Shown piece by piece: positions 5,806-48,812 of a stretch of DNA of 54,535 nt. The notes below the pieces were generated by a model, which saw nothing but the letters and a program-made list of their open reading frames with translations, ran no database searches and was not told the origin of the DNA. Origin of the DNA: a virus (Duplodnaviria > Caudoviricetes); the IMG/VR virus record IMGVR_UViG_3300043430_000111, positions 1 to 54,535 of that record; one strand, written 5' to 3'. Within the stretch, counting starts at the first letter, position 1. Each line of letters opens with the position of its first letter. Made by a program: the position numbers and the translations under genes.

Positions 5806-6088
5806 GTCGGCGGATGGCGTTTTCACACTGCCCTACCGGGTACGCACCCACTCGGTCTTGAACGATGGCACCGATACGCTCACATTCGCGCGCTGCGGCA
5901 TCGACACCGGCCTGCCAGCCCCACCACGCCGCGTTGAACATCTGCACACCATAGTTGCCGTTCTCGTCTTTCCAGAACAGAGCATCGGGGGTGCCATCTC
6001 CTTCGGCGTTGTGGTCTGTTTTGCCAGCGGCTTTTCGCTGCAAATAGTGCTCGTATGCGGCCTTCTCGAAGGCTTGTCGGTTGCTCAT
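5798..6088 (-). CDS. Hypothetical phage protein
   Basis: RQAFE...AWWGWQA motif typical of small phage early proteins; coupled to upstream gene. Confidence 0.75.
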   Translation of the reverse strand: MSNRQAFEKAAYEHYLQRKAAGKTDHNAEGDGTPDALFWKDENGNYGVQMFNAAWWGWQAGVDAAARECERIGAIVQDRVGAYPVGQCENAIRRLT

Positions 6089-6524: not shown

Positions 6525-6649
6525 GACTGGTTGGGTGTGTAAGGGTGGTCAGGTTCTGGTTGCGGGTATTCTTCCGGCGCATCCAGTTCGTCGTCGCGGT
6601 CGTCTTGCCAGCGGCGGCTCCATGCCGCTTTTGTGTCGGGCTGGCTCAT
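6521..6649 (-). CDS. 42-aa hypothetical protein (not in the ORF track)
   Basis: MSQPDTKAAW...YTPNQS*, with ATGA overlaps on both sides. Confidence 0.6.
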   Translation of the reverse strand: MSQPDTKAAWSRRWQDDRDDELDAPEEYPQPEPDHPYTPNQS

Positions 6650-6804
6650 GGCTTCGGCTCCTTCAGAATCTGCGCTTCCAGCCACGTCACCATGCTGCGC
6701 AGATCGTCATGCAGGTAATCGGGGAGTCGGTTTCCGCTGGAAAGGCCCCACGACTCAAGCGCACTCAGCAGGCGCATCTGGGCGAGTATGTATTTTTTGT
6801 CCAT
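6646..6804 (-). CDS. Hypothetical protein
   Basis: MDKKYIL... ORF coupled to the downstream gene. Confidence 0.65.
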   Translation of the reverse strand: MDKKYILAQMRLLSALESWGLSSGNRLPDYLHDDLRSMVTWLEAQILKEPKP

Positions 6805-6856
6805 GTGTGCTTTCTGTGTGGATGGCCCAGTGAGGGCCATCGTTATCAGGCGGTTT

Positions 6857-6879
6857 GTGACGCCTAATAACGGTTAGGC
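6857..6879 (+). mobile_element. Minimal R-box hairpin / cassette insertion point (attI- or attG-like)
   Basis: GCCTAAT-AACG-GTTAGGC; the GTTRRRY core at 6873-6879 starts cassette 1. Confidence 0.65.
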
Positions 6880-7179
6880 CCTAACATCCCTGCGCACTGC
6901 GGCACGCATCTGTGCCGCGCCATCGGCAATCGTCACCTCACCAAGGCAGTGAGACAGCGCGCCCGTCAGACCGCTTTGCATGGGCATCGTGAGCATTGCC
7001 ACGCGGGCCAGCAGCTCAGGCAGCGGCACTTCAAAGCCGTCGCCAAGATCAACGATGGATTCACAGGCCTGCTGCGACATCTCGAAGTAGGCGTCATCGT
7101 CACTGCGGATGTGCTCGGGGTACAGCAGGCGCAGCAACTCGTGCATTTCCAGATCGTCAAGTGGGTGCGGTTTCTTCAT
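6874..7179 (-). CDS. Cassette 1 hypothetical protein
   Basis: 101 aa; GAGAGGA RBS; TAA stop inside the GTTAGGC core. Confidence 0.85.
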   Translation of the reverse strand: MKKPHPLDDLEMHELLRLLYPEHIRSDDDAYFEMSQQACESIVDLGDGFEVPLPELLARVAMLTMPMQSGLTGALSHCLGEVTIADGAAQMRAAVRRDVRA

Positions 7180-7208
7180 GTTGGTCCTCTCGTCGTTGTG
7201 GCTGCATG

Positions 7209-7262
7209 GCCTAACCGTTCGCTCAAGCGGACGCAGAGCGCCGCTTAGCTGTCTGGTTAGGC
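7209..7262 (+). mobile_element. attC site 1
   Basis: GCCTAAC-CGTTC-GCT(C)AAGCGG(A)CGC-AGA-GCGCCGCTTAGC-TGTCTG-GTTAGGC: R''/L''/L'/R' boxes with two extrahelical bases. Confidence 0.92.
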
Positions 7263-7631
7263 CCCAAACGCATCGCGTCGCATCTCTTCATGCCACTCGG
7301 CCCGCCGATCGTCTTGACGGAGCGATGCCGCGTCGGGCTCGTGCAACTCGGGGGGTTGAAGTTGTGCGCTAGACCATTCTTCGGCGTCAAAGTCGGCCAG
7401 TTCTTCGGCGTGTTCTTCGGCGCCATGCGGCCACTCGATGACTTGCGCTTTGCATTGGTCGACGGTCACCGCCCACTGAGACAATTTCTCGGGGTTTTTG
7501 TCGAAGAACCCCTGCATGTCCTTGTTGTGGCGCGCCGCCATGTGTTCGGCCATGGCGCGGCTTGGTGCAGCGTGAAGATCATCAGGACCGGGGATGCGAA
7601 TGCACCAGAGTCCTTCTGTTGTTTGGTTCAT
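7257..7631 (-). CDS. Cassette 2 hypothetical protein
   Basis: 124 aa; GAGAGGA RBS; TAA stop inside the R' box of attC1. Confidence 0.85.
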   Translation of the reverse strand: MNQTTEGLWCIRIPGPDDLHAAPSRAMAEHMAARHNKDMQGFFDKNPEKLSQWAVTVDQCKAQVIEWPHGAEEHAEELADFDAEEWSSAQLQPPELHEPDAASLRQDDRRAEWHEEMRRDAFGA

Positions 7632-7660
7632 GTCGTTCCTCTCGTCGTTGTGGCCACCAG

Positions 7661-7717
7661 GCCTAACCGGGCGCTCAAGCGGACGCCTTCGGCGCGCGCT
7701 TAGCTGTCTGGTTAGGC
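7661..7717 (+). mobile_element. attC site 2
   Basis: GCCTAAC-CGGGC-GCTCAAGCGGACGCC-TTC-GGCGCGCGCTTAGC-TGTCTG-GTTAGGC. Confidence 0.9.
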
Positions 7718-7975
7718 GTCACTTGGCTTGCCGCCGCATCGCTCACTCATGCAGTACGTCAAGCGGCCTAGTTCCGTCAAGCCGTAGCCTTCCACGGTGC
7801 AGGGCAACGGTCCATTCATGCGTTCGGACACCTTGCGCAACAGACCATCAGCTACCAACGCATCGGCGCGCTTCTTGGCCTTGGTCTGCATCATGTATAG
7901 CGGGCTCTTGTTCATGGCCGCTTCAACTTCCGCCGAAAACGCCCGTTCAAGAAGGTCAAGGTCTTTGCTGTTCAT
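7712..7975 (-). CDS. Cassette 3 protein, possible winged-helix
   Basis: 87 aa; ADALVADGLL...YGLTELGR resembles a wHTH wing; GAGG RBS; stop in the R' box of attC2. Confidence 0.8.
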   Translation of the reverse strand: MNSKDLDLLERAFSAEVEAAMNKSPLYMMQTKAKKRADALVADGLLRKVSERMNGPLPCTVEGYGLTELGRLTYCMSERCGGKPSDA

Positions 7976-8002
7976 CGGTTTCCTCTTCGTTCATCACGTA
8001 AC

Positions 8003-8057
8003 GCCTAACCGCCAGTTCAACCGGACGCCAAGGCGCCGGTTAACTTATTGGTTAGGC
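8003..8057 (+). mobile_element. attC site 3
   Basis: GCCTAAC-CGCCA-GTT(C)AACCGG(A)CGCC-AA-GGCGCCGGTTAAC-TTATTG-GTTAGGC; compensatory changes relative to attC1. Confidence 0.92.
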
Positions 8058-8330
8058 CTCAGGGTCCGTGGCGGGGTTGCTGAAGAAACCGTCATCGCGC
8101 GGGGTCTGGCCCTCCGGCATGATCTTTGTGGGAAAGCCTGCTGCCTGGCACTCAGCGGCCTCATCAAGCGCGTCTTGCGGCGGTTTGGCTGGACATAGAT
8201 GCGCCGAGTTCATTTCCCAGTCGGTGCCCAGTTCCTCGATACCGCAATTGCTGTCAATCCACACCACGAACAGCAAAGGCCTTTCCGGCCGTTTGGTAGT
8301 CGTCGGTTGCTTCTCAATGACGTGGTTCAT
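8052..8330 (-). CDS. Cassette 4 hypothetical protein
   Basis: 92 aa; AGGAG RBS; stop in the R' box of attC3. Confidence 0.8.
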   Translation of the reverse strand: MNHVIEKQPTTTKRPERPLLFVVWIDSNCGIEELGTDWEMNSAHLCPAKPPQDALDEAAECQAAGFPTKIMPEGQTPRDDGFFSNPATDPEA

Positions 8331-8430
8331 CTGGCTCCTATCCGGCCCACTCCGTGAGCCTCCGAATCAAACGCTCGGCCTGGCGGCCCAGCTTGGTGTG
8401 GTGCCCACGGTGGGCGGTGTCGGTGGCATG

Positions 8431-8484
8431 GCCTAACCGGGCGCTCAAGCGGACGCAGAGCGCCGCTTAGCTGTCTGGTTAGGC
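8431..8484 (+). mobile_element. attC site 4
   Basis: Identical to attC1 except the 5-bp spacer (CGGGC). Confidence 0.92.
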
Positions 8485-8485
8485 G

Positions 8486-9454
8486 TTACTTGGCTGCGAG
8501 CATGGCGGCGCGGCAGGCGTTCCACCCCTCTGCATAACCTGCGGCCTGACCGGAACAGTAGTCGTACTCTGTGCCATCTTCAACGGGTGAGGCAATAGCG
8601 TCCGGCACGCTCGGCGCTGGGCGGGTGTATAGCTTTGTTCCTGGGGTCAGCAAGAGCCCTGTTTCAATGATGAACCCATCCCTGTCAACATAAGCCACCG
8701 ACGCACCCGTGGCGGGCTGCTGGGCCTCTGCCTGCGTGGCCTGGGCTGGCTGCGGGGTGGTGTAAATCTTGGTGCCAACAGGGGCTTCGTCTGCTCTGAA
8801 GCAGGCCATCGTGAAGCCCGATGTTCCCGGCATCGTGCCTACTTCACCAATAGGCTCACCCTGCACCTGAGAGCAGGCTTGCAGGGCGAAGGCGCACATT
8901 TGGTCGGCAGTGAAGCCTCGCAATGCTTGCGTACCCACAACGATTACGCCTTCAGGCTCTGGCAGCGGCGGCAGTTGGTTGGTGTCTTTCATCTCTCGCA
9001 TCTGGCGTGCAGAGAATGCAGGCTGATTGCTCTTGTCGGTCTTGATGTCGTGGTGGGCTTCTGCTGCCCATACGCCGCGCATGAATGTGCCTCGGTATCC
9101 ATACGACTTGCTCTGCTTCAGGTAGGCTTCACGGCGCTCATCATCTGTCATCGGCACCCGCTCAGGGCGCAGGGCAAGGATGGCGCGGGCGTAAGCACGG
9201 TGCGCCTGAAGCATTACGCCAATTTGTTCACCCCACTGCTCTACAGTTACGGCATCAATATCAGCATCCGTCACCCCTGCCCATTGTGGAGCGGCTGTGA
9301 GTGACAAAGATGCTTGTGAATCAGATTCGGCGTTCTGTGCTCCACAAACCAGCATGGCCTCCCGCATCTGGCGTGCAGAGAATGCAGGCTGATTGCTTAT
9401 ATCCGTCTTGATGTAGCCAAGATCAGGCTCAGGCAATTGGTTGGTGTCGGTCAT
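8486..9454 (-). CDS. Mosaic hypothetical phage protein with internal repeats
   Basis: NQPAFSARQMRE x2, DTNQLP x2, GTK(I/L)YT x2, C-terminal GWNACRAAML motif. Confidence 0.8.
   Translation of the reverse strand: MTDTNQLPEPDLGYIKTDISNQPAFSARQMREAMLVCGAQNAESDSQASLSLTAAPQWAGVTDADIDAVTVEQWGEQIGVMLQAHRAYARAILALRPERVPMTDDERREAYLKQSKSYGYRGTFMRGVWAAEAHHDIKTDKSNQPAFSARQMREMKDTNQLPPLPEPEGVIVVGTQALRGFTADQMCAFALQACSQVQGEPIGEVGTMPGTSGFTMACFRADEAPVGTKIYTTPQPAQATQAEAQQPATGASVAYVDRDGFIIETGLLLTPGTKLYTRPAPSVPDAIASPVEDGTEYDYCSGQAAGYAEGWNACRAAMLAAK
8997..9397. repeat. 35-bp exact direct repeat
   Basis: CGCATCTGGCGTGCAGAGAATGCAGGCTGATTGCT at 8997-9031 and 9363-9397. Confidence 0.9.
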
Positions 9455-9653: not shown

Positions 9654-9895
9654 TGAATACTCCCGACCCACGCCCACAGCCACCCTCGGCCACCTCGCCC
9701 CGTGGGCTCGCGGGTGCCAACGATGCGAACGAGCTTGTGGTTCGACAGCGAGCGCAAGATGCGACCAACGCTGTAGCGGTGCGCGTCGGTGACCGGCAGA
9801 CCGAGATCGGTGCACAACTCAACGATGGTGTGGGGGCCTGTCAGAAGCAGGGTGATGATCCGCGATACGCGGTCGGCGTAACGGTGTTGGCTCAT
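9650..9895 (-). CDS. Putative winged-helix protein
   Basis: GPHTIVELCTDLGL...VGRILRSL; coupled ORF. Confidence 0.65.
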   Translation of the reverse strand: MSQHRYADRVSRIITLLLTGPHTIVELCTDLGLPVTDAHRYSVGRILRSLSNHKLVRIVGTREPTGRGGRGWLWAWVGSIQ

Positions 9896-11223
9896 ACCGC
9901 AACCTCCATCTTCACGAACGGATGGTGGCGGTATCCCTTGATGTGGAAGTCGTCCAACTTGTAGCCGTCGATGTCGGTGTTATCGGTGAGGATCACCAAC
10001 TGGGCCTCGTCACGGATGATGTCGCGCCCCAGAACCTGCCGCATCTTCTCGACGTGGTTTGAGTAGAGGTGCGCGTCACCGATGTCCACCAGCAGGCGGC
10101 GCGGCTTGAGGTTTGCGGCACGGGCGTACAGGTGCGTGAGCAGTGCGTAGGCAGCTACGTTGAACGGCAGGCCAAGAGCCACGTCCGATGAGCGCATGAA
10201 TAGCTTGAGGTCAAGGTGCCCGTCGTTGGACACGTAGCACTGGTGTGTGTGATGACATGGGGGCAGCGCCATGCGATCAAGTTCGCCAACATTCCATGAC
10301 GTGACAATGTGTCGGCGGCCATGGGGGTTGGTGCGAAGACCCTCGATGAGCGTCTTCACTTGGTCGAACTCCTTGCGTAGCGGTGTGCGAGAAACAAACT
10401 CAAAGCCGTCTCGCCTCTTAGCATTCTTGTTGCCGGTCCACAGATCGGAGAAGTTCTTTGGCTCAATTCCATGTTCATCACAGAACTCGCTCACGTTCGT
10501 AAAGGCGAACCCTTCACCATTGCGGCGCACCACGTAGAGCCACTCAGCCTTGGCCGACGCATTCTCTTTGTCACTCACGAAGCAACAGGTCTCAGGTGCA
10601 TACCTGAACCCGTCCCCGAGAATGTCCTTGTCCAAGACCTTGCGATAACGTCCGAGTTCGAGGCAGTAACCGGGCAAGTTGCTAAGGTCTCCTGCAAAGG
10701 CTCGGAACTCAAGCCAGCGGTCACAAACATGAACGCCTCTGGCTCCGTAGCTCTTATAACTGATGTTCTTCGGGTCGTAGCAACGACCCATCATGCCTTC
10801 CCAGGTCTTGCCAAAGCGGCTCTCACCCTTTCCAGCACCGTTGCCAATTCCAAGATAGGTCGCCTCAACGCCATCGCGCAGACGGGGCTTGGGTTGCGGG
10901 ATGTTGTCCGGCCTTGCGCCCCATCGACGCCAGTTGAATCCATACACAGGGCCGAGGTTTCCATTCTCATCAGCCCAGGCATCCCACAGCTTGCTACCGC
11001 GCTCGTTCAGCCACTTGACGTTTGTCTGTCCACTCAGGAAGAACAGCATCTCCAGGAATGCCGTCAGCCACCGCGTCTCCTTGGCCGTCACCAGGGGGAA
11101 GCGTTCGCGCAGGTCGAACTCCAGGTTGGCACCGAAGACGGCGAGGGTGCCGACTCCGGTACGGTCGTCGCGCAGCTCACCTTCCGCCAAGATGCGGGCG
11201 ACGAGGTTAAGGTACTGTTTCAT
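9892..11223 (-). CDS. thyA: Thymidylate synthase with in-frame HNH-like insertion
   Basis: DRTGVGT, FPLVT, LGPVYG, RRHIV, MALPPCH, RSSDVALGLPFN, GDAHLY motifs. Confidence 0.95.
   Translation of the reverse strand: MKQYLNLVARILAEGELRDDRTGVGTLAVFGANLEFDLRERFPLVTAKETRWLTAFLEMLFFLSGQTNVKWLNERGSKLWDAWADENGNLGPVYGFNWRRWGARPDNIPQPKPRLRDGVEATYLGIGNGAGKGESRFGKTWEGMMGRCYDPKNISYKSYGARGVHVCDRWLEFRAFAGDLSNLPGYCLELGRYRKVLDKDILGDGFRYAPETCCFVSDKENASAKAEWLYVVRRNGEGFAFTNVSEFCDEHGIEPKNFSDLWTGNKNAKRRDGFEFVSRTPLRKEFDQVKTLIEGLRTNPHGRRHIVTSWNVGELDRMALPPCHHTHQCYVSNDGHLDLKLFMRSSDVALGLPFNVAAYALLTHLYARAANLKPRRLLVDIGDAHLYSNHVEKMRQVLGRDIIRDEAQLVILTDNTDIDGYKLDDFHIKGYRHHPFVKMEVAV
10375..10914 (-). mobile_element. About 180-aa homing-endonuclease-like insertion in thyA
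   Basis: WEGMMGRCY...YGARGVHVCDRWLEF...LDKD...YAPETCCFV lies between YGFNWRRW and DQ, which are normally about 10 aa apart; boundaries approximate. Confidence 0.75.
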
Positions 11224-21866: not shown

Positions 21867-22087
21867 TGGCCCAGCGCAACTACCCTGCGGGCGCACTGGT
21901 CCGGGTCAACGACATCTGCCGCAACCCCAAGACCGGCGCGGCCGGTATCCTACCGCTCGGCCGCTCCACGTGGTATCGCTGGATTCAAGAAGGCAAAGTG
22001 CCCGAGGGTGTCAGCCTCGCGGGCACGGCCACGAAGGTGTGGCCCATCGAGACTGTGCTGGCGCTCGCCGGTCAGGCCGACAACTGA
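21866..22087 (+). CDS. AlpA-type excisionase
   Basis: GILPLGRSTWYRWIQEGKVP; adjacent to the integrase. Confidence 0.85.
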   Translation: MAQRNYPAGALVRVNDICRNPKTGAAGILPLGRSTWYRWIQEGKVPEGVSLAGTATKVWPIETVLALAGQADN

Positions 22088-23271
22088 TCTATCCGGTCAG
22101 CCAGGAATTGCAGAGCACGCCGACGCTCGTCCGCGTGCTCTGCGTGCGTATAGGCGGCAACAACCGCACTGCGCTCCTGGTGTGACAGCAGCAACTCCAC
22201 CACCTCCCGCGAGAACCCGTGCTCACGCAGCAGCGTCGCCGCGGTGCTGCGCGTACCGTGTGGTGAGAACTGCGGCACCCCGAAGTTCAGCCGCTTGAAC
22301 ATGTGGTTGAGCGTGACTTCTGCGATGGGCCGACCATTGCCGTTCACAAAGCGCGTCGGGAAGACGTACTGACCGTGACCGGTGATCCGCTTGAGGTAGG
22401 TCAGCAACTCGACCGCCTGCCGAGACAGATACACCCGGTGGGGCTTGCCGTTCTTCATCCGTTCCTCGGGGATGTCCCACAACCCCTTGTCCAAGTCGAA
22501 TTCCGGCCACTCGGCCAGCCGCAACTCCGTCTTTCGCACCATCGTCAGCATGAGCAGCTTGGCGGCGTAGACCGTGATGATGGTCGCCTGCCGCTGACGG
22601 TTCAACTCCGTCCAGAACGCACCCAACTCCACCTCGCTCAAGTGCCGGTGGTGGGTGGCGGGCGGCACGGAGATGGCACCGCGTACTGCCGTCGCCGGGT
22701 TGCCGTCAACCAGCAGTTTGCGAATGGCGAAGTTGAAAACCTGCTGGATGAGTGATCGACACCGGTCTGCCGTGGTCGGGATGTGCTTGTTTGACTCCAT
22801 GATGGCGAGCACGTCGCGCGGCTTGACCTCGGTGAGTGCTTTGGCTCCGATGCTCGGGTTGATGTAGGAGTCCAGAAACCGGATGCACTGTGAGCGGTAC
22901 GCCTCCGACCGATAGAACAGCGTCTCCTTCACCCAGGTCTTTGCGAACGCCTCGAAAGTCGGCACGTCCGGCTCCGGCTCGCGCTCGGCCTTTTTCTCGT
23001 CAGCCGGGTCGATGCCGCGCGCCACGTCCGAGCGCAGCCGCTCATGGAGGGTTCGCGCATCCGCGATGCTGATCTGGGGGTACGGGCCGATAGTGAACTT
23101 GGGGCGCCGGCCCGCCAGCCGGTACGTGTACCTCCACACCTTCGAGCCCCCCGGCAGGACTTCCAGGTACAGCCCGCCACCGTCCGTGAGCACATAGGGC
23201 TTGTCTTTTGGCTTGGATGCGTTGATGACGGTCGGCTTGAGTGTGTAGTTGATGTGTCGTTGCTGTCCCAT
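22072..23271 (-). CDS. int: P4-type tyrosine integrase
   Basis: Arm-binding DGGGLYL...IGPYP; catalytic R (VRKTE), K, HGTR, LSH, Y; ATG at 23271. Confidence 0.95.
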   Translation of the reverse strand: MGQQRHINYTLKPTVINASKPKDKPYVLTDGGGLYLEVLPGGSKVWRYTYRLAGRRPKFTIGPYPQISIADARTLHERLRSDVARGIDPADEKKAEREPEPDVPTFEAFAKTWVKETLFYRSEAYRSQCIRFLDSYINPSIGAKALTEVKPRDVLAIMESNKHIPTTADRCRSLIQQVFNFAIRKLLVDGNPATAVRGAISVPPATHHRHLSEVELGAFWTELNRQRQATIITVYAAKLLMLTMVRKTELRLAEWPEFDLDKGLWDIPEERMKNGKPHRVYLSRQAVELLTYLKRITGHGQYVFPTRFVNGNGRPIAEVTLNHMFKRLNFGVPQFSPHGTRSTAATLLREHGFSREVVELLLSHQERSAVVAAYTHAEHADERRRALQFLADRIDQLSA

Positions 23272-23274
23272 TTT

Positions 23275-23555
23275 TGGCTCCACGATCTTTCCAGAGACCC
23301 CATTGTGGCACCATGCGCGCCGACCGTGGTGCCAACTATGGAGCCTTTGGAGCGGGATGGACATGGATTGTGTGGGACACCCAGGGACAAAAAAGCCAAC
23401 TGGAATCAACAAGTTGGCTCTTAAATGGGACAGTCTGGGATGCTCTGAAACGTCAACCAATGTGCTCGATCATGACATGTAAATTCACGATTTTGCTAGG
23501 AGAGGTTGTCGTTTTGATGCCAAATTACTGCGGCATGGAGCCAATCATGGAGCCA
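23275..23555. other. Candidate attP with arm-type sites
   Basis: RTGGWGCCW at 23326, 23338, 23535 and 23547 (two pairs, 12-bp period) and inverted at 23275 and 23306. Confidence 0.65.
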
Positions 23556-43940: not shown

Positions 43941-44230
43941 GAGCGGCCTTTCTTGAGCGTGTAGTCCGGCGCTCCGGTGCGCCAGTCCGACGATGTTGCG
44001 AGTTGGCTGGCGACGAGCGCGGTCAGCAAGATGAGTTGCCCGAGGTCTTCATGACGGGGGAAAAGCCAGGGTGACAGCGCCGAGCAAAAAGCCCCGACGA
44101 ACACAAGCAGGTATCTCAACTGGAAGGCCACACGGGTGTGGCCCATCCTCGATTTGTTGAGGCGACACAGAGACACGTAGCTCAGTGCGAACGAGAAGAT
44201 CGAGATGCCCACGTCTACCGTCGTCATCAC
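43937..44230 (-). CDS. Holin-like membrane protein
   Basis: Three hydrophobic segments, upstream of the endolysin. Confidence 0.65.
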   Translation of the reverse strand: MMTTVDVGISIFSFALSYVSLCRLNKSRMGHTRVAFQLRYLLVFVGAFCSALSPWLFPRHEDLGQLILLTALVASQLATSSDWRTGAPDYTLKKGRS

Positions 44231-44610
44231 TCACCTCGCTTTGGTAGCATCGCCAGCAATCTCTCAGAGCCCCAGGCGACGACGCGCGGCCAGTCGTGAC
44301 CTATACCTGCGATGGAGACGGAAACCGGAGCCAGGAGCCAGTGCACAGAGTCAAGCTGCGCCCAGATGTTGATGATCTCGGCCACCCCTGTTGTCACCAG
44401 AGAGGACAGCCCGATCATGAGTGTCACAAAGCCGATGGCGCCGAAGCGCGGAAGCTCTTGGATGCGCAAAAGCGCGATACCCGAGCCCACGGCCGCGCCG
44501 ATGATGATGACCGAGTAAGCACCGAGAAAAGTCGCCAGAGTTGGGCCAACGAAGACCGTGAACCCAGCTATCAAGGCACTCACCGGGTCGAGTGAGTTCG
44601 GTTGCTGCAT
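44227..44610 (-). CDS. Holin-like membrane protein
   Basis: Three to four hydrophobic segments. Confidence 0.65.
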   Translation of the reverse strand: MQQPNSLDPVSALIAGFTVFVGPTLATFLGAYSVIIIGAAVGSGIALLRIQELPRFGAIGFVTLMIGLSSLVTTGVAEIINIWAQLDSVHWLLAPVSVSIAGIGHDWPRVVAWGSERLLAMLPKRGE

Positions 44611-44667
44611 AGACTGCTATCCCATTTTCAGGTTTAGCGCATTGTCCGTTGGCAACCTTGATCGTTT

Positions 44668-44685
44668 ATGCGGGACTTTTTCGCA
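44668..44685 (-). promoter_or_regulatory. Late-promoter motif variant
   Basis: ATGCGGGACTTTTTCGCA upstream of the lysis cassette. Confidence 0.6.
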
Positions 44686-44784
44686 ATATGCCGCACTCAC
44701 AGTGCTGCGTCCACCTTGGTCTGGATCTGGAAGATGGCTGTCAGCTCGGCGTGCAACTCAGCGCGAACAGCAGCGCGGTTTTAT

Positions 44785-45021
44785 TTATATAATTGAGGCC
44801 AATACCGGCACTGCAACTCCTAATACGTTTGAAGCCATATCCTGCCAACTGGGTTCACCACGTTTGAGATACCAGTCGTGAATAACTTCCTTGGAAGCTG
44901 CAACGATCAAAGTAACGGCAACCGCATAAACCAGAGGAAGCACCAGCATCAGCAGGGTACAGATCACTGCACAGTACAGAGCATGGTTTGCCTTGTCTTG
45001 TGGGAGCTGTGGAAGATTCAT
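44785..45021 (-). CDS. Small membrane protein
   Basis: DKANH...KE..D...D motif, hydrophobic, AT-rich; AGGAG RBS. Confidence 0.7.
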   Translation of the reverse strand: MNLPQLPQDKANHALYCAVICTLLMLVLPLVYAVAVTLIVAASKEVIHDWYLKRGEPSWQDMASNVLGVAVPVLASII

Positions 45022-45030
45022 AGGTACTCC

Positions 45031-45348
45031 TTATGCCCAAACTCGGGATGGTGTTGATGGGTAAACAGTGTAGGGCTCAAGGGTTGAGCCATCCTCGTCC
45101 GGCATGAGGAATACGTTGACGTGCCAACCATCGAGCGTCTCCGTGATGGGCTGGCCTTGGTCGTCCATCTCGCCGGTCAGCTTGGTGATCTGGCCGATGG
45201 TGTCGATGTTGCGGAAGTTTGGCGTGCTGTACGCCTCGTTGAGAATATTGCCATCAGCATCCAAGATAGCCAGATGCTCGGTGTATAGGGCTGACTTGGC
45301 TTGAGCTTCGTCAGTGAATTTTAGGCAGATGTTCATGATGATCCTCAT
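45031..45348 (-). CDS. Fibre-associated small protein
   Basis: GWHVN...P.TPSRVWA, typically found after fibre genes. Confidence 0.7.
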   Translation of the reverse strand: MRIIMNICLKFTDEAQAKSALYTEHLAILDADGNILNEAYSTPNFRNIDTIGQITKLTGEMDDQGQPITETLDGWHVNVFLMPDEDGSTLEPYTVYPSTPSRVWA

Positions 45349-47066
45349 GCTGTAAGGGCTTGCAACTCGGTATTGCTCAGACGCTTAGGGTAGTAAGAGA
45401 GTTTCTTGATTGTCCCATTTAAGCTATAAGAACTTCCCGACAAGATCCCAACACTAAGTGCTGATGCATTTCCATAAGGAGTAGAGAATGAGCCAGCTAC
45501 GGGGATACTCCCAGATAGGGAGATTGAAAGACTTCCACTACCATATGCAGTTGTGATTTTAGCCCCTGGAAAGTACGTCCCCGTGGCAGTTATTTGCGCA
45601 GTATCAAAACAAGATACAGTACCGTTTGGGTTTATAAATGCAATGTGACCATTGCCATCTATTCCAGCAATCCCCCTGACGTTTCCACCATACTCAGCAT
45701 ACGAGTCCATAAAGAATGTACCCTCATCCTGCCGAAACCAGCTACTGAAATTCGCACCCGCCATTACCGCAGCATCAGCAGCACGAGTTACCTGTGCTGC
45801 GGTTGTGGGGATGTAGGAGGTTGGGAAAGCTCCCGCTTCTAATTGAGCACCCCATACATTGAGGGTTTCGCCCCCAGTTGCAACCATTGCACCATTACCA
45901 GATGCATCCGCAAAATACACCACAAAGTAGTCTGTGACAGAGGCTGTTACATAAGTAGACACGCAACGATACCAACCACCACCAATATCAGTAATTGTTG
46001 CGCTGCCTCCAACAACAGTTTTCATGACTGTTCCGTTGGACACATTGAAGGCAGACCCGCCCATGTAAAGGTAACCGTAAGTTCCAGCTCGCGCATACAC
46101 TGAAGCGGTATATTTTGCTCCTGCTGTTACTGTTATGGCTTGGTAATACCCACGGTTTGCCCACGCCCCAGCAGTCGCTTGCAATGTCGTGCCAGCAAGA
46201 ACCCCATCCGGCGCAACAATGTTGTTCGAGTAGCGGGTGACATTGCTCGAAATCCAGCCAGAACCGACTGCGCTCTGAGTAACAAGGTTCGTCCTCTGCT
46301 CCTCAATCAACAGCCCCAGGCTTTCACCCGTCACAGGGTTATGGTCGAAGCGAGGGACGCCAGATGGAGCAGTCTGAAGAACTGGCTGGTACTTGGTGAT
46401 AGGCCGGTCTGTGGTGGGGATGTAGGCTGTTACTTGACTGCGTTGTTCTAGTTGGGCGCCCCAGATGTAGATTCCCGATATGCCGTCACCCGTTACAGAC
46501 TGGTTGGCTACGGTGATAGAGGCAGTTGACGCAAAGATTCGCACTCGGTCACTGCCGCCTGCAACAGCGACGGCGATCCGATGCCAACCACCGCTCATTG
46601 ATGCCGAAGTGACAACGCATCCCGTGCCTTGCAGCGTGACCGTGCCAGTAGAAAGGTCAACACCAGCTAAGACGCCAGTGTTTCCGAGGGACACACCAAG
46701 ATGATTTGCGGTGTTTGCTTTCGCATAGATTGAGAACATCGCAGGAGCTGCAACAGCCGGGATTTGTTGCAAGTACCAGATACCGCTTGAGCCGCTGGCG
46801 GTAACAAGCGAATCAGCAGTAGACGTACCATCTGGCGCGGTGGTTGTGTTGGCCGTGACCGTTACGGACACTTGACCCCAAGCTGCATTATCAAAATCCT
46901 GACTGTACTTCAGCAGGTTCTCTTCAGCCTTCGCCTGCGTCACGCCATCCCAATAAGTTGCCGTGGATGCACGGGTGAACGTGATGCGAGGATCGAGCTG
47001 CTTGGTATTTGCAAAGTCCAGATTCAAACTTGGCTTGATATTCGGAAACTTAGATTTAATACTCAT
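45345..47066 (-). CDS. Fibre/spike protein with duplicated carbohydrate-binding-like module
   Basis: FTRASTATY, GLLIEEQRTNL, WGAQLE...YIPTT twice. Confidence 0.8.
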   Translation of the reverse strand: MSIKSKFPNIKPSLNLDFANTKQLDPRITFTRASTATYWDGVTQAKAEENLLKYSQDFDNAAWGQVSVTVTANTTTAPDGTSTADSLVTASGSSGIWYLQQIPAVAAPAMFSIYAKANTANHLGVSLGNTGVLAGVDLSTGTVTLQGTGCVVTSASMSGGWHRIAVAVAGGSDRVRIFASTASITVANQSVTGDGISGIYIWGAQLEQRSQVTAYIPTTDRPITKYQPVLQTAPSGVPRFDHNPVTGESLGLLIEEQRTNLVTQSAVGSGWISSNVTRYSNNIVAPDGVLAGTTLQATAGAWANRGYYQAITVTAGAKYTASVYARAGTYGYLYMGGSAFNVSNGTVMKTVVGGSATITDIGGGWYRCVSTYVTASVTDYFVVYFADASGNGAMVATGGETLNVWGAQLEAGAFPTSYIPTTAAQVTRAADAAVMAGANFSSWFRQDEGTFFMDSYAEYGGNVRGIAGIDGNGHIAFINPNGTVSCFDTAQITATGTYFPGAKITTAYGSGSLSISLSGSIPVAGSFSTPYGNASALSVGILSGSSYSLNGTIKKLSYYPKRLSNTELQALTA

Positions 47067-47075
47067 AGGTATACC

Positions 47076-48812
47076 TTATGCCAGCGTGATGGTTGCCGAG
47101 CGTGTCACCCCATCAGAGCCACGAACCAAGACTTTCAAGCTGGTGTTGCTTTCAAGCTGGAACGACATATCCCCATTGGTGCCAAGCATCGGGGCTGCGG
47201 CAGTTGGTTGGCAAACCATGTTGCCAGATACTTCCAACTTACCCCCGGACGACTTGGTTGATCTACCAACAAGCACGTCACCCGCAAAGTAGTTGATATG
47301 GTCAGCCTTGGTTTGGTAGACCCCGTACTTGTTTGTTACTACTCCAGCTCCTGACACTGTTACGCCATCTAGGTAAGCATCATAATAAGAGCCTACTGTT
47401 TGCGTTCCGGTGGCGTTTCCAATAGTTGCATTGGTGTATAAGCCACGGGCATTTGTAATAACTGCCGTTGTTCCAGCAGCTACCATATTGATGGTTGAGT
47501 AATACCCAGTTGCTTCGACAATTGTTCCAGATTGGTTTGCGATTGTTGAGCTTACGCCAAACGCTTGCCCGGTAGCTACAGTAGATGGTACTGCAATGCT
47601 GTGCTGGACTATAGACCTGAACCCCGCCAAGTAACTAGAGGGATTAGTATTATTCCCTACATCTAGCGCATTGTTTCTCCGCACAATGGCCTGGAAACCG
47701 TTCAAGGCTACTCGACCTCCAGGATCGAGAGTGTAGCCGTTGAGGACGGATTGGTAACCGGTAGCAAACATCGACCCCCCACCAGCAGGGATTCGATCAT
47801 CAACAAAAGTACCGTAGAAGTAGTTACCCGCAGCAGTCTGCGCTGCATTTGCTGATGCCGAGAGCTTAAATTCCGGTGGAAATACAAAGCTACTGATAGG
47901 CACCACAATACCATTCACCACCCTGCTCCCAAAAGGCCCAGTCAGTGACAAACCACTCAGAGTAGGTGAGTCCGTACTGAAAGCCAAAGGCCCAAGATAC
48001 TGATTCAACGGGATCTGGTTCGGCCCTGTGCCAATGTCAGACTGGATCACAGCATCCACACCACCTTCTTGCAGGGTGGTGGGATTGACTGTGCCACCAG
48101 TGATCGTCTTGTTGGTCAGCGTGGCGACTGCTGCGCGCTCTGCAAAAACGTGCGCTGTCGTGGCTATCTGCGTGGTATTGGTGCCAACCGCTGCTGTCGG
48201 GGCGGTCGGTGTGCCAGTCAGCGCGGGTGACGTGAGCGGTGCTTTGAGGACTAGCGCTGTCTGTGTCGCGGTGCTGACGGGCTTGTTCGCATCGCTGGTG
48301 TCGTCCACGTTACCCAGCCCAACGTCACCCTTAGCCAGCGTGACCGCCCCGGTCTTGCCTGCGACGCTTTGCACGGGTGCAGCGGCTGCGGCTTCTGCTG
48401 TGGTGGCGTACTGAGGGTGCGGGTCTGATGCGGCTGTGTGGGCAGTGACTGCGGCGACTGCGGTGCCTGCGGGATCGGCCCCTGCCTGTTCCGCGTCGTG
48501 GGTGTGGGTGCTTGGTGGGAAGGTTGCGGGCTTGCCGGTCACGCCATCCCAAGGCACTGCATCGGCGCTGTCGGCGGCGCCTACTTTTCCGTCTCCGTCG
48601 GCGTCATAGCGGGACGCCAGCATGTCGCCGCGCTGCGCCCACTGCGCGGGGGCAGCAGACACCAGCATCCACTCGCTGTTGTTGTCTTGTTGCAAGCAGT
48701 ATTTGCCCACGTCTTCGGCAAGCACGGCGATGGCCGCGCGTGCTGCGGCGTTGGCTACGCGCCAGTTTTGCGGCGCGTGAATTTCACCCGCAGGGATTTG
48801 TACGTGTTCCAT
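47076..48812 (-). CDS. Fibre protein
   Basis: VQSVAGKTGAV, VGLGNVD, SPALTGTPTAPT...IATT fibre repeats. Confidence 0.8.
   Translation of the reverse strand: MEHVQIPAGEIHAPQNWRVANAAARAAIAVLAEDVGKYCLQQDNNSEWMLVSAAPAQWAQRGDMLASRYDADGDGKVGAADSADAVPWDGVTGKPATFPPSTHTHDAEQAGADPAGTAVAAVTAHTAASDPHPQYATTAEAAAAAPVQSVAGKTGAVTLAKGDVGLGNVDDTSDANKPVSTATQTALVLKAPLTSPALTGTPTAPTAAVGTNTTQIATTAHVFAERAAVATLTNKTITGGTVNPTTLQEGGVDAVIQSDIGTGPNQIPLNQYLGPLAFSTDSPTLSGLSLTGPFGSRVVNGIVVPISSFVFPPEFKLSASANAAQTAAGNYFYGTFVDDRIPAGGGSMFATGYQSVLNGYTLDPGGRVALNGFQAIVRRNNALDVGNNTNPSSYLAGFRSIVQHSIAVPSTVATGQAFGVSSTIANQSGTIVEATGYYSTINMVAAGTTAVITNARGLYTNATIGNATGTQTVGSYYDAYLDGVTVSGAGVVTNKYGVYQTKADHINYFAGDVLVGRSTKSSGGKLEVSGNMVCQPTAAAPMLGTNGDMSFQLESNTSLKVLVRGSDGVTRSATITLA

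Follow-up and report, generated by a model that had tools for sequence, protein, structure and literature searches.

An integrase-less attC cassette array in a temperate phage carries all of its genes reversed relative to attC

The 54,535-bp stretch of DNA analyzed here (the window) is an entire IMG/VR virus record, IMGVR_UViG_3300043430_000111, which CheckV rates as complete. Positions 6862–8484 of the window are a genuine integron-type cassette array without its own integrase (CALIN), made up of four full attC recombination sites and one collapsed site. All four genes of this array lie on the bottom strand of attC. In the direction of transcription each cassette consists of an attC hairpin, whose bottom strand has the sense of the mRNA, followed by a ribosome-binding site (RBS), a small phage gene and a TAA stop codon supplied by the R′ core. 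This is the opposite of the canonical cassette, in which the gene is on the top strand with attC behind it, and on viral contigs arrays of this attC type prove to be reversed as a rule. We favor, with modest confidence, the hypothesis that these reversed cassettes are moved by a host integron integrase and read from the leftward promoter of the phage.

Several lines of evidence identify the array. First, the pattern GCCTAA-N30-60-TTAGGC was scanned across the window and 100 shuffled versions of it; the plus strand has four matches, 0.01 are expected by chance, and none of the 100 shuffles reaches four. The matches correspond to attC1 (7209–7262, 54 nt), attC2 (7661–7717, 57 nt), attC3 (8003–8057, 55 nt, with a differing L-box variant) and attC4 (8431–8484, 54 nt), all with the top strand on plus. 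At each of the four, R″ (GCCTAAC, of the form RYYYAAC) and R′ (GTTAGGC, of the form GTTRRRY) stand at opposite ends and are mutually complementary. Second, the sites fold, with z scores of −4.65 (attC1, −17.8 kcal/mol on the minus strand), −2.76 (attC2), −4.87 (attC3) and −3.55 (attC4). Third, the core GTTAGGC occurs nine times in 54.5 kb, always inside 6873–8484, where 2.94 copies are expected and only one shuffle in 100 reaches nine; five copies are on plus (6873, 7256, 7711, 8051 and 8478) and four on minus. The array thus comprises four attC sites within 1.3 kb and no intI. The profile TIGR02249 has no match to an integron integrase anywhere in the 54.5-kb record, which is accordingly not a complete integron, and attC1 has no blastn match among plasmids. 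Two of the sites, attC1 and attC4, are 97% identical over 59 nt (repeat family D4).

The left end of the array (6857–6879, plus) has an R″-like core, GCCTAAT (6862–6868), 4 nt and a lone R′ core, GTTAGGC (6873–6879). Taken alone, this collapsed site has a weak fold (−4.7 kcal/mol, z −1.55). The two sequences that border the array, 6857–6867 and 8479–8489, are complementary at 10 of 11 positions, with one G-T pair; the array therefore appears to be inserted in a small core-like palindrome between two phage genes encoding proteins of 322 and 64 aa.

On the minus strand the array divides into four units. Cassette 1 (6874–7256) holds open reading frame (ORF) 1 (6874–7179, 101 aa), a leader with an RBS, and attC1 up to the G of its R′ core. 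Cassette 2 (7257–7711) holds ORF2 (7257–7631, 124 aa) and attC2, cassette 3 (7712–8051) ORF3 (7712–7975, 87 aa) and attC3, and cassette 4 (8052–8478) ORF4 (8052–8330, 92 aa), a 100-nt leader and attC4. The coordinates of each ORF start one base past the G of a plus-strand GTTAGGC, so that the stop codon TAA is the complement of TTA in R′ and falls exactly at the crossover position. The first-pass annotation had placed these stops at 6874, 7257, 7712 and 8052, and these coordinates are correct. All four cassette proteins end in Ala-GCC. The good RBSs that the same annotation described are also present, as the RBS-like motifs GAGAGGA, AAGAGGA and TAGGAG, 5–8 nt ahead of each ATG. The distance from attC to the start codon is only 25–100 nt, and it follows that transcription must come from outside the cassette. 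As an observation apart, a conserved leader with the RBS and the start region recurs outside attC in cassettes 1 and 2, at 7175–7208 and 7627–7660 (repeat family D1, 60 nt, 87% identity), and the proteins of these two cassettes are unrelated.

These minus-strand ORFs are real genes. A codon score (log-odds) trained on 15 long window ORFs gives +0.31, +0.15, +0.22 and +0.27 per codon for ORF1 to ORF4. A search with ORF1 returned 152 proteins, and its AlphaFold2 model has a pLDDT of 91; the fold has no Foldseek match in the PDB at E ≤ 0.001 (best E 0.85). ORF2 has 13 homologues with 27 invariant columns and no tblastn match among cultured phages. ORF3 matches phrog_2239 (E 1.2e-6) and 166 representative homologue clusters, with one weak tblastn match among cultured phages; structure comparison gave only weak winged-helix or PadR-like rows (E ≥ 0.045). 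The ORF4 search gave 18 proteins, its own window protein among them. None of the four has a Pfam match. The first-pass annotation had put all four genes on the minus strand, and had named expression of the plus-strand ORFs as the outcome that would overturn its claim. That possibility was checked by codon scores and homology searches. The plus-strand ORFs at 6949–7248, 7290–7703, 7797–8198 and 8068–8436 are long, and in GC content at the three codon positions they are a mirror image of the minus-strand frames. Their codon scores are nonetheless negative (−0.03, −0.03, −0.13 and −0.04 for the longest rivals), and they have no Pfam or PHROG match, whereas all four minus-strand ORFs returned conserved protein families; we can practically discount the idea that they are genes.

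The claim of reversal depends on which strand of attC recombines. In these sites, the plus-strand arm next to GCCTAAC has one extra C and one extra A relative to the other arm. Correspondingly, in the DNA fold of the minus strand an internal loop separates an 8-bp R stem from the L stem, which ends in a loop of 3–4 nt and has one bulged T and one bulged G on its 3′ arm (z −2.8 to −4.9). The sites thus have an imperfect L″/L′ stem with extrahelical G and T in the bottom strand and an unpaired central spacer. Bouvier (2009) describes a conserved G in L″ without a partner in L′ as the first extrahelical base, which decides strand choice, with cleavage in the bottom-strand R′ box. By the extrahelical bases and this rule, the assignment of plus as top strand and minus as the predicted recombinogenic bottom strand is supported, as the first-pass annotation had argued from the same bases. 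A second test used a strand-specific 25-nt pattern derived from the window (the R″ core, 5 nt, and L″ with the extra bases). In bacterial genomes it marks at least 136 stretches, most of them in Burkholderiales, Rubrivivax and other betaproteobacterial metagenome-assembled genomes (MAGs). One of these, the betaproteobacterial genome G001, encodes a bona fide integron integrase (intI, 478 bits against a cut-off of 265) at 211694–212638 (+) of its contig. The same pattern is present in the array adjoining it, where the pattern-defined top strands are on the contig minus strand and reach no higher than 211153. Such a divergent arrangement of intI and cassettes is the textbook one, and since the attC type matches, it validates the strand assignment.

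A counter-hypothesis is that the strand rule fails for short phage sites, that the plus strand recombines and that the cassettes are ordinary (gene, attC, stop in R″), with nothing reversed. Read along the minus strand, the array does look textbook: a core, an RBS, a gene, a stop in the GCCTAAC core, a hairpin and another core. In addition, among the viral relatives of ORF2 there is one, locus L217, in which a site stands behind the stop codon, again with its bottom strand as the sense strand. Upstream of this ORF2-like gene there is only a core remnant, with 21 nt in common with the window, and the single gene with its downstream site resembles one ordinary cassette inserted at a stop codon. 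A test of pairing beyond the R cores is symmetric and gives no discrimination between strands. Nevertheless, the bulged G and T are on the minus-strand 3′ arm in four of four sites, the conserved L″ G decides strand choice in the account of Bouvier (2009), and bacterial sites that match the 25-nt pattern have genes and intI on the predicted sides, among the matches listed. Furthermore, the identity of L217 with the window runs 7 nt beyond the crossover point that this hypothesis requires. We judge it improbable.

Having settled on reversed polarity in the window, we turn to its generality. The first-pass annotation had proposed a survey of gene and attC orientation in phage and bacterial arrays, which was run in two forms. 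In both, attC sites were found by cores and fold and oriented by the arm bearing the extra bases, and gene strands were called from the codon score of ORFs within 300 nt on either side by a caller made for this analysis. Survey 1 used de-duplicated loci with GC ≥ 0.55, the viral ones from the palindromic pattern, of which 35 loci gave calls. Survey 2 applied one identical strand-specific pattern to both collections. Its viral scan is complete (78 stretches); the viral samples of the two surveys overlap. All bacterial counts (at least 136 stretches), and the viral counts of survey 1, refer to loci among the matches listed.

The two collections are opposite in polarity. As canonical, inverted and ambiguous intervals, survey 1 gave 0, 46 and 13 to the left of the site and 1, 49 and 11 to the right in viral arrays, against 33, 4 and 51 (left) and 37, 6 and 46 (right) in bacterial arrays. 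In survey 2 the viral figures are 1, 27 and 16 (left) and 1, 31 and 11 (right), and the bacterial ones 22, 3 and 45 (left) and 24, 3 and 42 (right; Fisher p = 1e-10 for left and 3e-12 for right). Summed over both sides, survey 2 finds 2 canonical and 58 inverted viral intervals and, among the matches listed, 46 canonical and 6 inverted bacterial ones. Counted by locus, 34 of the 35 viral loci with a strand call are inverted, with no canonical locus and one tie; the bacterial loci comprise 29 canonical, 3 inverted and 3 ties. Stop codons follow suit, lying exactly in R′ for 24 of 31 ORFs to the right of viral sites and in R″ for 9 of 33 ORFs to the left of bacterial sites. Where this attC type occurs on viral contigs, reversal is thus the rule. 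The window terminase matches only one of 31 viral records, and that weakly, which indicates that the carrier phages are diverse.

Cargo differs as well. Among the bacterial canonical ORFs, 41 of 62 match Pfam families typical of integron cargo, namely GNAT, cupin, SnoaL, glyoxalase, SMR, DsbA, methyltransferases, HicA, BrnT and MazE. One of nine inverted bacterial ORFs is an MqsA/HTH_3 antitoxin-like protein. Viral cassette ORFs are mostly phage ORFans (22 of 76 match PHROGs and 6 of 76 match Pfam), and their PHROG matches include Lar-like, Mom-like, HNH and RNA ligase families, among others. Such homology backs the strand calls. The sites themselves are short in viruses (median 57 nt, 39 of 46 at most 72 nt, minimal loops; L363–L440) and long in bacteria (median 90 nt, 12 of 73 at most 72 nt; L219–L353). 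Two side observations belong here. Reversed viral cassettes such as L047 1211–1450 (−), L055 1134–1673 (−) and L023 1404–2406 (+) have cargo that includes Lar-like restriction alleviation, Mom-like DNA modification, RNA ligase and HNH endonuclease proteins, which hints at counter-defense. On the bacterial side, four loci of one betaproteobacterial MAG contig (L220, L221, L270 and L271) contain at least 13 near-identical 88-nt attC sites at a fixed 296-bp spacing, a tandem array of tiny, nearly identical cassettes.

It could still be argued that the array is a host integron fragment, present by chance or misassembly and without any special relation to the phage. The attC type is indeed the host clade's own, and short-read contigs break at every attC. 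The runs compared from other metagenomes consist of contigs and carry neither strand nor level of expression; uncovered stretches in runs X5, X10 and X12 are uninformative. In these runs, contigs from wastewater and activated sludge cluster at the attC bins, with single cassette bodies on them. A contig of 404 nt is identical to 8051–8393, and one of 292 nt matches 7255–7529 but for two differences. A body like that of cassette 1 is found behind a full attC, not behind the collapsed site, and loose contig ends beside shared attC cores read again as minus-strand starts and stops. Apparent joints between attC sites in these contigs were not counted as deletions, given that the near-identity of the sites explains them. 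Against a host fragment stand the phage-like cargo (phrog_2239, and ORF2 relatives in plain phage operons), which is unlike the GNAT, cupin, SnoaL and toxin-antitoxin cargo of bacterial arrays, the polarity opposite to that of bacterial arrays, the tight packing and co-orientation with the flanking backbone genes, and the same layout on 34 viral loci. We therefore consider this origin highly improbable.

The genomic setting is that of a phage operon. PHROG matches to small and large terminase subunits and to portal, protease, major head, tail and tape-measure genes show that the window is a temperate siphovirus. The array sits within a leftward block of early or accessory genes that runs from about 12026 down to 5798, entirely on the minus strand. 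Upstream in the direction of transcription lies the 322-aa backbone gene (8486–9454, −), whose stop codon is 1 nt past the last R′ core, and downstream, on the same strand, the 64-aa backbone gene (6646–6840, −); the cassette genes are co-oriented and closely packed with both. No terminator-like site was found on the minus strand between 4700 and 12600. On the plus strand there is one sigma-70-like match (6021–6048), against 1.6 expected by chance. That the cassettes are co-oriented with the leftward operon, with no terminator-like site on the minus strand of this interval, suggests that a phage promoter would drive them.

We propose the following mechanism. A host integron integrase would recombine the folded minus strands at R′ cores, and such recombination would excise, insert and exchange cassettes among phage arrays of matching polarity. 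The genes would be transcribed by read-through from the leftward promoter of the phage, because the hairpins have no T-tract behind them. A host cassette in the phage array, or a phage cassette behind the host cassette promoter Pc, would then be antisense and silent. The reversed polarity would in this way leave phage and host cassettes mutually silent, as two pools on one recombination chemistry. The first-pass annotation had likewise suggested that a phage promoter could replace Pc, and the reversed layout across unrelated viral contigs points to a separate phage cassette pool. Host IntI is expressed under SOS, which would coincide with prophage induction. We put forward, more tentatively, that phages of integron-bearing bacteria keep a reverse-polarity pool of their own that is shuffled by the SOS-induced integrase of the host during induction or infection. 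If so, the reversal would place the recombinogenic strand on the coding strand, probably the lagging-template strand.

The polarity itself may have another cause. In the reversed layout the bottom strand would become the non-template strand; it would also be the lagging-strand template if transcription and fork movement have the same direction. Richard et al. (2024, PMC13108822) describe the lagging-template position as favoring attC folding and excision, and chromosomal integrons as keeping the bottom strand on the leading template. For the window, GC skew yielded no replication direction, and AT skew merely tracks transcription. Mimicry of the stop codon by the R core was rejected as a cause of polarity: it is symmetric, given that stops in R″ occur in bacterial genes too (9 of 33, among the matches listed), and it would need repeated loss of antisense cargo.

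Complementarity around the cores also bears on how the cassettes have moved. In integron arrays, the partners in pairing past the 7-nt cores are the two ends of one cassette, not the two ends of one site in the array. The window follows this in three of three units, where the base after R′ of one site pairs with that before R″ of the next; the base after R′ never pairs with the base before R″ of the same site (zero of three). Across viral arrays the count is 27 of 29 units for the cassette-wise pairing versus 8 of 29 for the site-wise pairing, and in cassette 3 the cassette-wise pairing extends to 13 of 15 positions. Complementarity past the cores thus follows the cassette, as in integron arrays.

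Several observations weigh against movement by a host integrase. No recombination event is directly observed in the data analyzed. None of the 31 viral records has an integron integrase above the cut-off, and activity would depend on a host enzyme. Three of four viral relatives of ORF2 are in ordinary operons with ATGA overlaps and no adjoining attC, so these cassette genes are not bound to cassettes. In survey 2, ambiguous intervals make up 87 of 139 bacterial and 27 of 87 viral ones, and the strand calls come from our own codon score. Moreover, Tetrasphaera phage TJE1 (L360; sites at 1016–1075 and about 1463–1518) has the extra bases on the gene strand and one gene that stops in R″. The TJE1 array is canonical, and reversal is therefore not universal among phages. 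The phage-specific cassette class proposed in the first-pass annotation is supported for this attC type, by the polarity surveys and the differences in cargo, and does not extend to all phages. Lastly, locus L021 encodes a protein 76% identical to ORF3 between two other attC sites. The window and L021 agree at 72% of 285 columns of the cassette body and at only 42% and 44% in the attC interiors, and homology ends at both R cores. Neither attC interior is visibly co-inherited with the gene; a single R′ crossover predicts that one would be. This may reflect either fast divergence of an element conserved in structure only or an exchange that involved both cores. Of five other pairs, one is weakly in favor of co-inheritance (0.67 vs 0.53), one has about equal values (0.38 vs 0.41) and three have only one site that can be compared.

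These points raise the question of whether the sites are attC-derived hairpins that are no longer integrase substrates in phages and are kept as linkers for swapping by phage recombination or as RNA hairpins. Uniform polarity would then be inherited, since homologous exchange preserves polarity. The near-identity of attC1 and attC4 over 59 nt agrees with this, as do the exonuclease and the Gp2.5-like annealing protein of the phage, which could do the swapping, the end of the L021 homology at both R cores with neither attC interior in common, the absence of IntI from all 31 viral records and the conserved leader of cassettes 1 and 2, which reaches past attC. The cassette-wise pattern of flank complementarity is harder to accommodate: it fits core crossovers with circular intermediates, unlike exchange anywhere in 50 nt of homology. 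In addition, very diverse viral sites retain intact extrahelical bases and an intact unpaired spacer, which would point to selection for recognition by an integrase, and attC sites of other phages have been recombined experimentally by IntI1 (Qi 2023, PMC9892861). Hairpins that serve only as linkers are in our view unlikely, and we continue to prefer movement by a host integron integrase.

As to the phage itself, the sole recombinase of the record is a P4-type tyrosine integrase (22072–23460). The phage has its own replication genes for a primase, a family-A polymerase, a helicase, an exonuclease and the Gp2.5-like protein. At 59.5% identity, its DNA polymerase resembles those of Acidovorax phages ACPWH and ACF1, which makes phages infecting Acidovorax its apparent nearest cultured relatives by sequence. 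Phage ACF1 shares the arrangement of a primase, a repressor-like gene, a leftward block of small genes and a rightward replication block. No close relatives bearing the locus were found through the neighboring 322-aa protein, and none of the phage in viral_contigs through its DNA polymerase. Thymidylate synthase was rejected as a route to relatives, its 80 loci being all too distant for use. A blastn search with 6600–8700 against cultured phages gave only chance-like matches of 33–40 nt, in the 322-aa gene.

Three further features of the genome deserve a record. The thymidylate synthase gene (9892–11223, −, 443 aa) has an in-frame HNH-endonuclease-like insert at about residues 130–267 that splits the halves of the ThyA domain; the Pfam ThyA match falls in two stretches, and PHROG HNH families match the middle part. 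The 322-aa gene contains a direct repeat of about 30 nt (about 9000–9029 and 9369–9398) that encodes a repeated NQPAFSARQMRE motif, and wastewater contigs show many short skips at about 8628–8705, which suggests a variable region. The tail-fiber region (44000–48800) has a GC content of 0.52 against about 0.60, with low third-position GC (GC3) of 0.47–0.57, and has the appearance of a host-range module that was exchanged recently.

Promoter-bearing toxin-antitoxin cassettes of sedentary chromosomal integrons are often inverted. The window cassettes are like them in being independent of Pc. They differ in that every one is reversed, whereas the toxin-antitoxin cassettes have their own promoters and are exceptions in canonical arrays; their presence in sedentary chromosomal integrons is described by Richard et al. 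(2024, PMC13108822). Burkholderiales- and Rubrivivax-type chromosomal integrons, G001 included, share with the viral arrays the 25-nt pattern, an R′ of GTTAGGC or a close variant and the shape of the fold. They differ from them in their longer sites and in their genes, which are on the top strand with typical cassette cargo, the opposite of the viral arrays.

Phage CALINs are already in print. Qi (2023, PMC9892861) describes attC arrays without intI in phage genomes, 17 phage CALINs in all, with small inverted core-like repeats at the array boundary as in the window, and cargo thought to benefit the phage. Unlike the window, TJE1 and PH101 are given there a typical bacterial layout, which our own calls confirm for TJE1. 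In the text of that paper, as available to us, we found no discussion of gene polarity relative to attC, and in the literature searched, the supplementary tables of Qi (2023) being outside it, no statement of a systematic reversal of phage cassettes. A possible entry route for a first cassette is offered by insertion at genomic attG/GWT sites, described along with SALINs (Loot et al., preprint 10.1101/2022.09.11.507474): a short GWT site needs no integron platform, and the window array stands in such a core-like palindrome. The part of the preprint considered here reports no strand bias of attG insertion, and this route alone leaves the uniform reversed polarity unexplained.

The ORF2 family occurs in cassette form and also as an ordinary gene in operons, which leads us to suggest that phage arrays may be a birthplace of new cassettes. 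Integron biology assumes that the choice of attC strand serves to orient promoterless genes behind Pc. Phages with arrays of the type described here use these recombination sites in systematic reversal, and an operon promoter on the far side would take the role of Pc. If host integrases do move these units, phages would gain a modular exchange of accessory and counter-defense genes (Lar-like, Mom-like, HNH and RNA-ligase), gene flow between phages and bacteria would be functionally gated by polarity, and annotation pipelines that assume co-orientation would miscall phage cassettes. The paired cassette and non-cassette forms of the ORF2 family offer a system for studying the origin of cassettes, and if phage arrays do give birth to cassettes, this old question would become testable.

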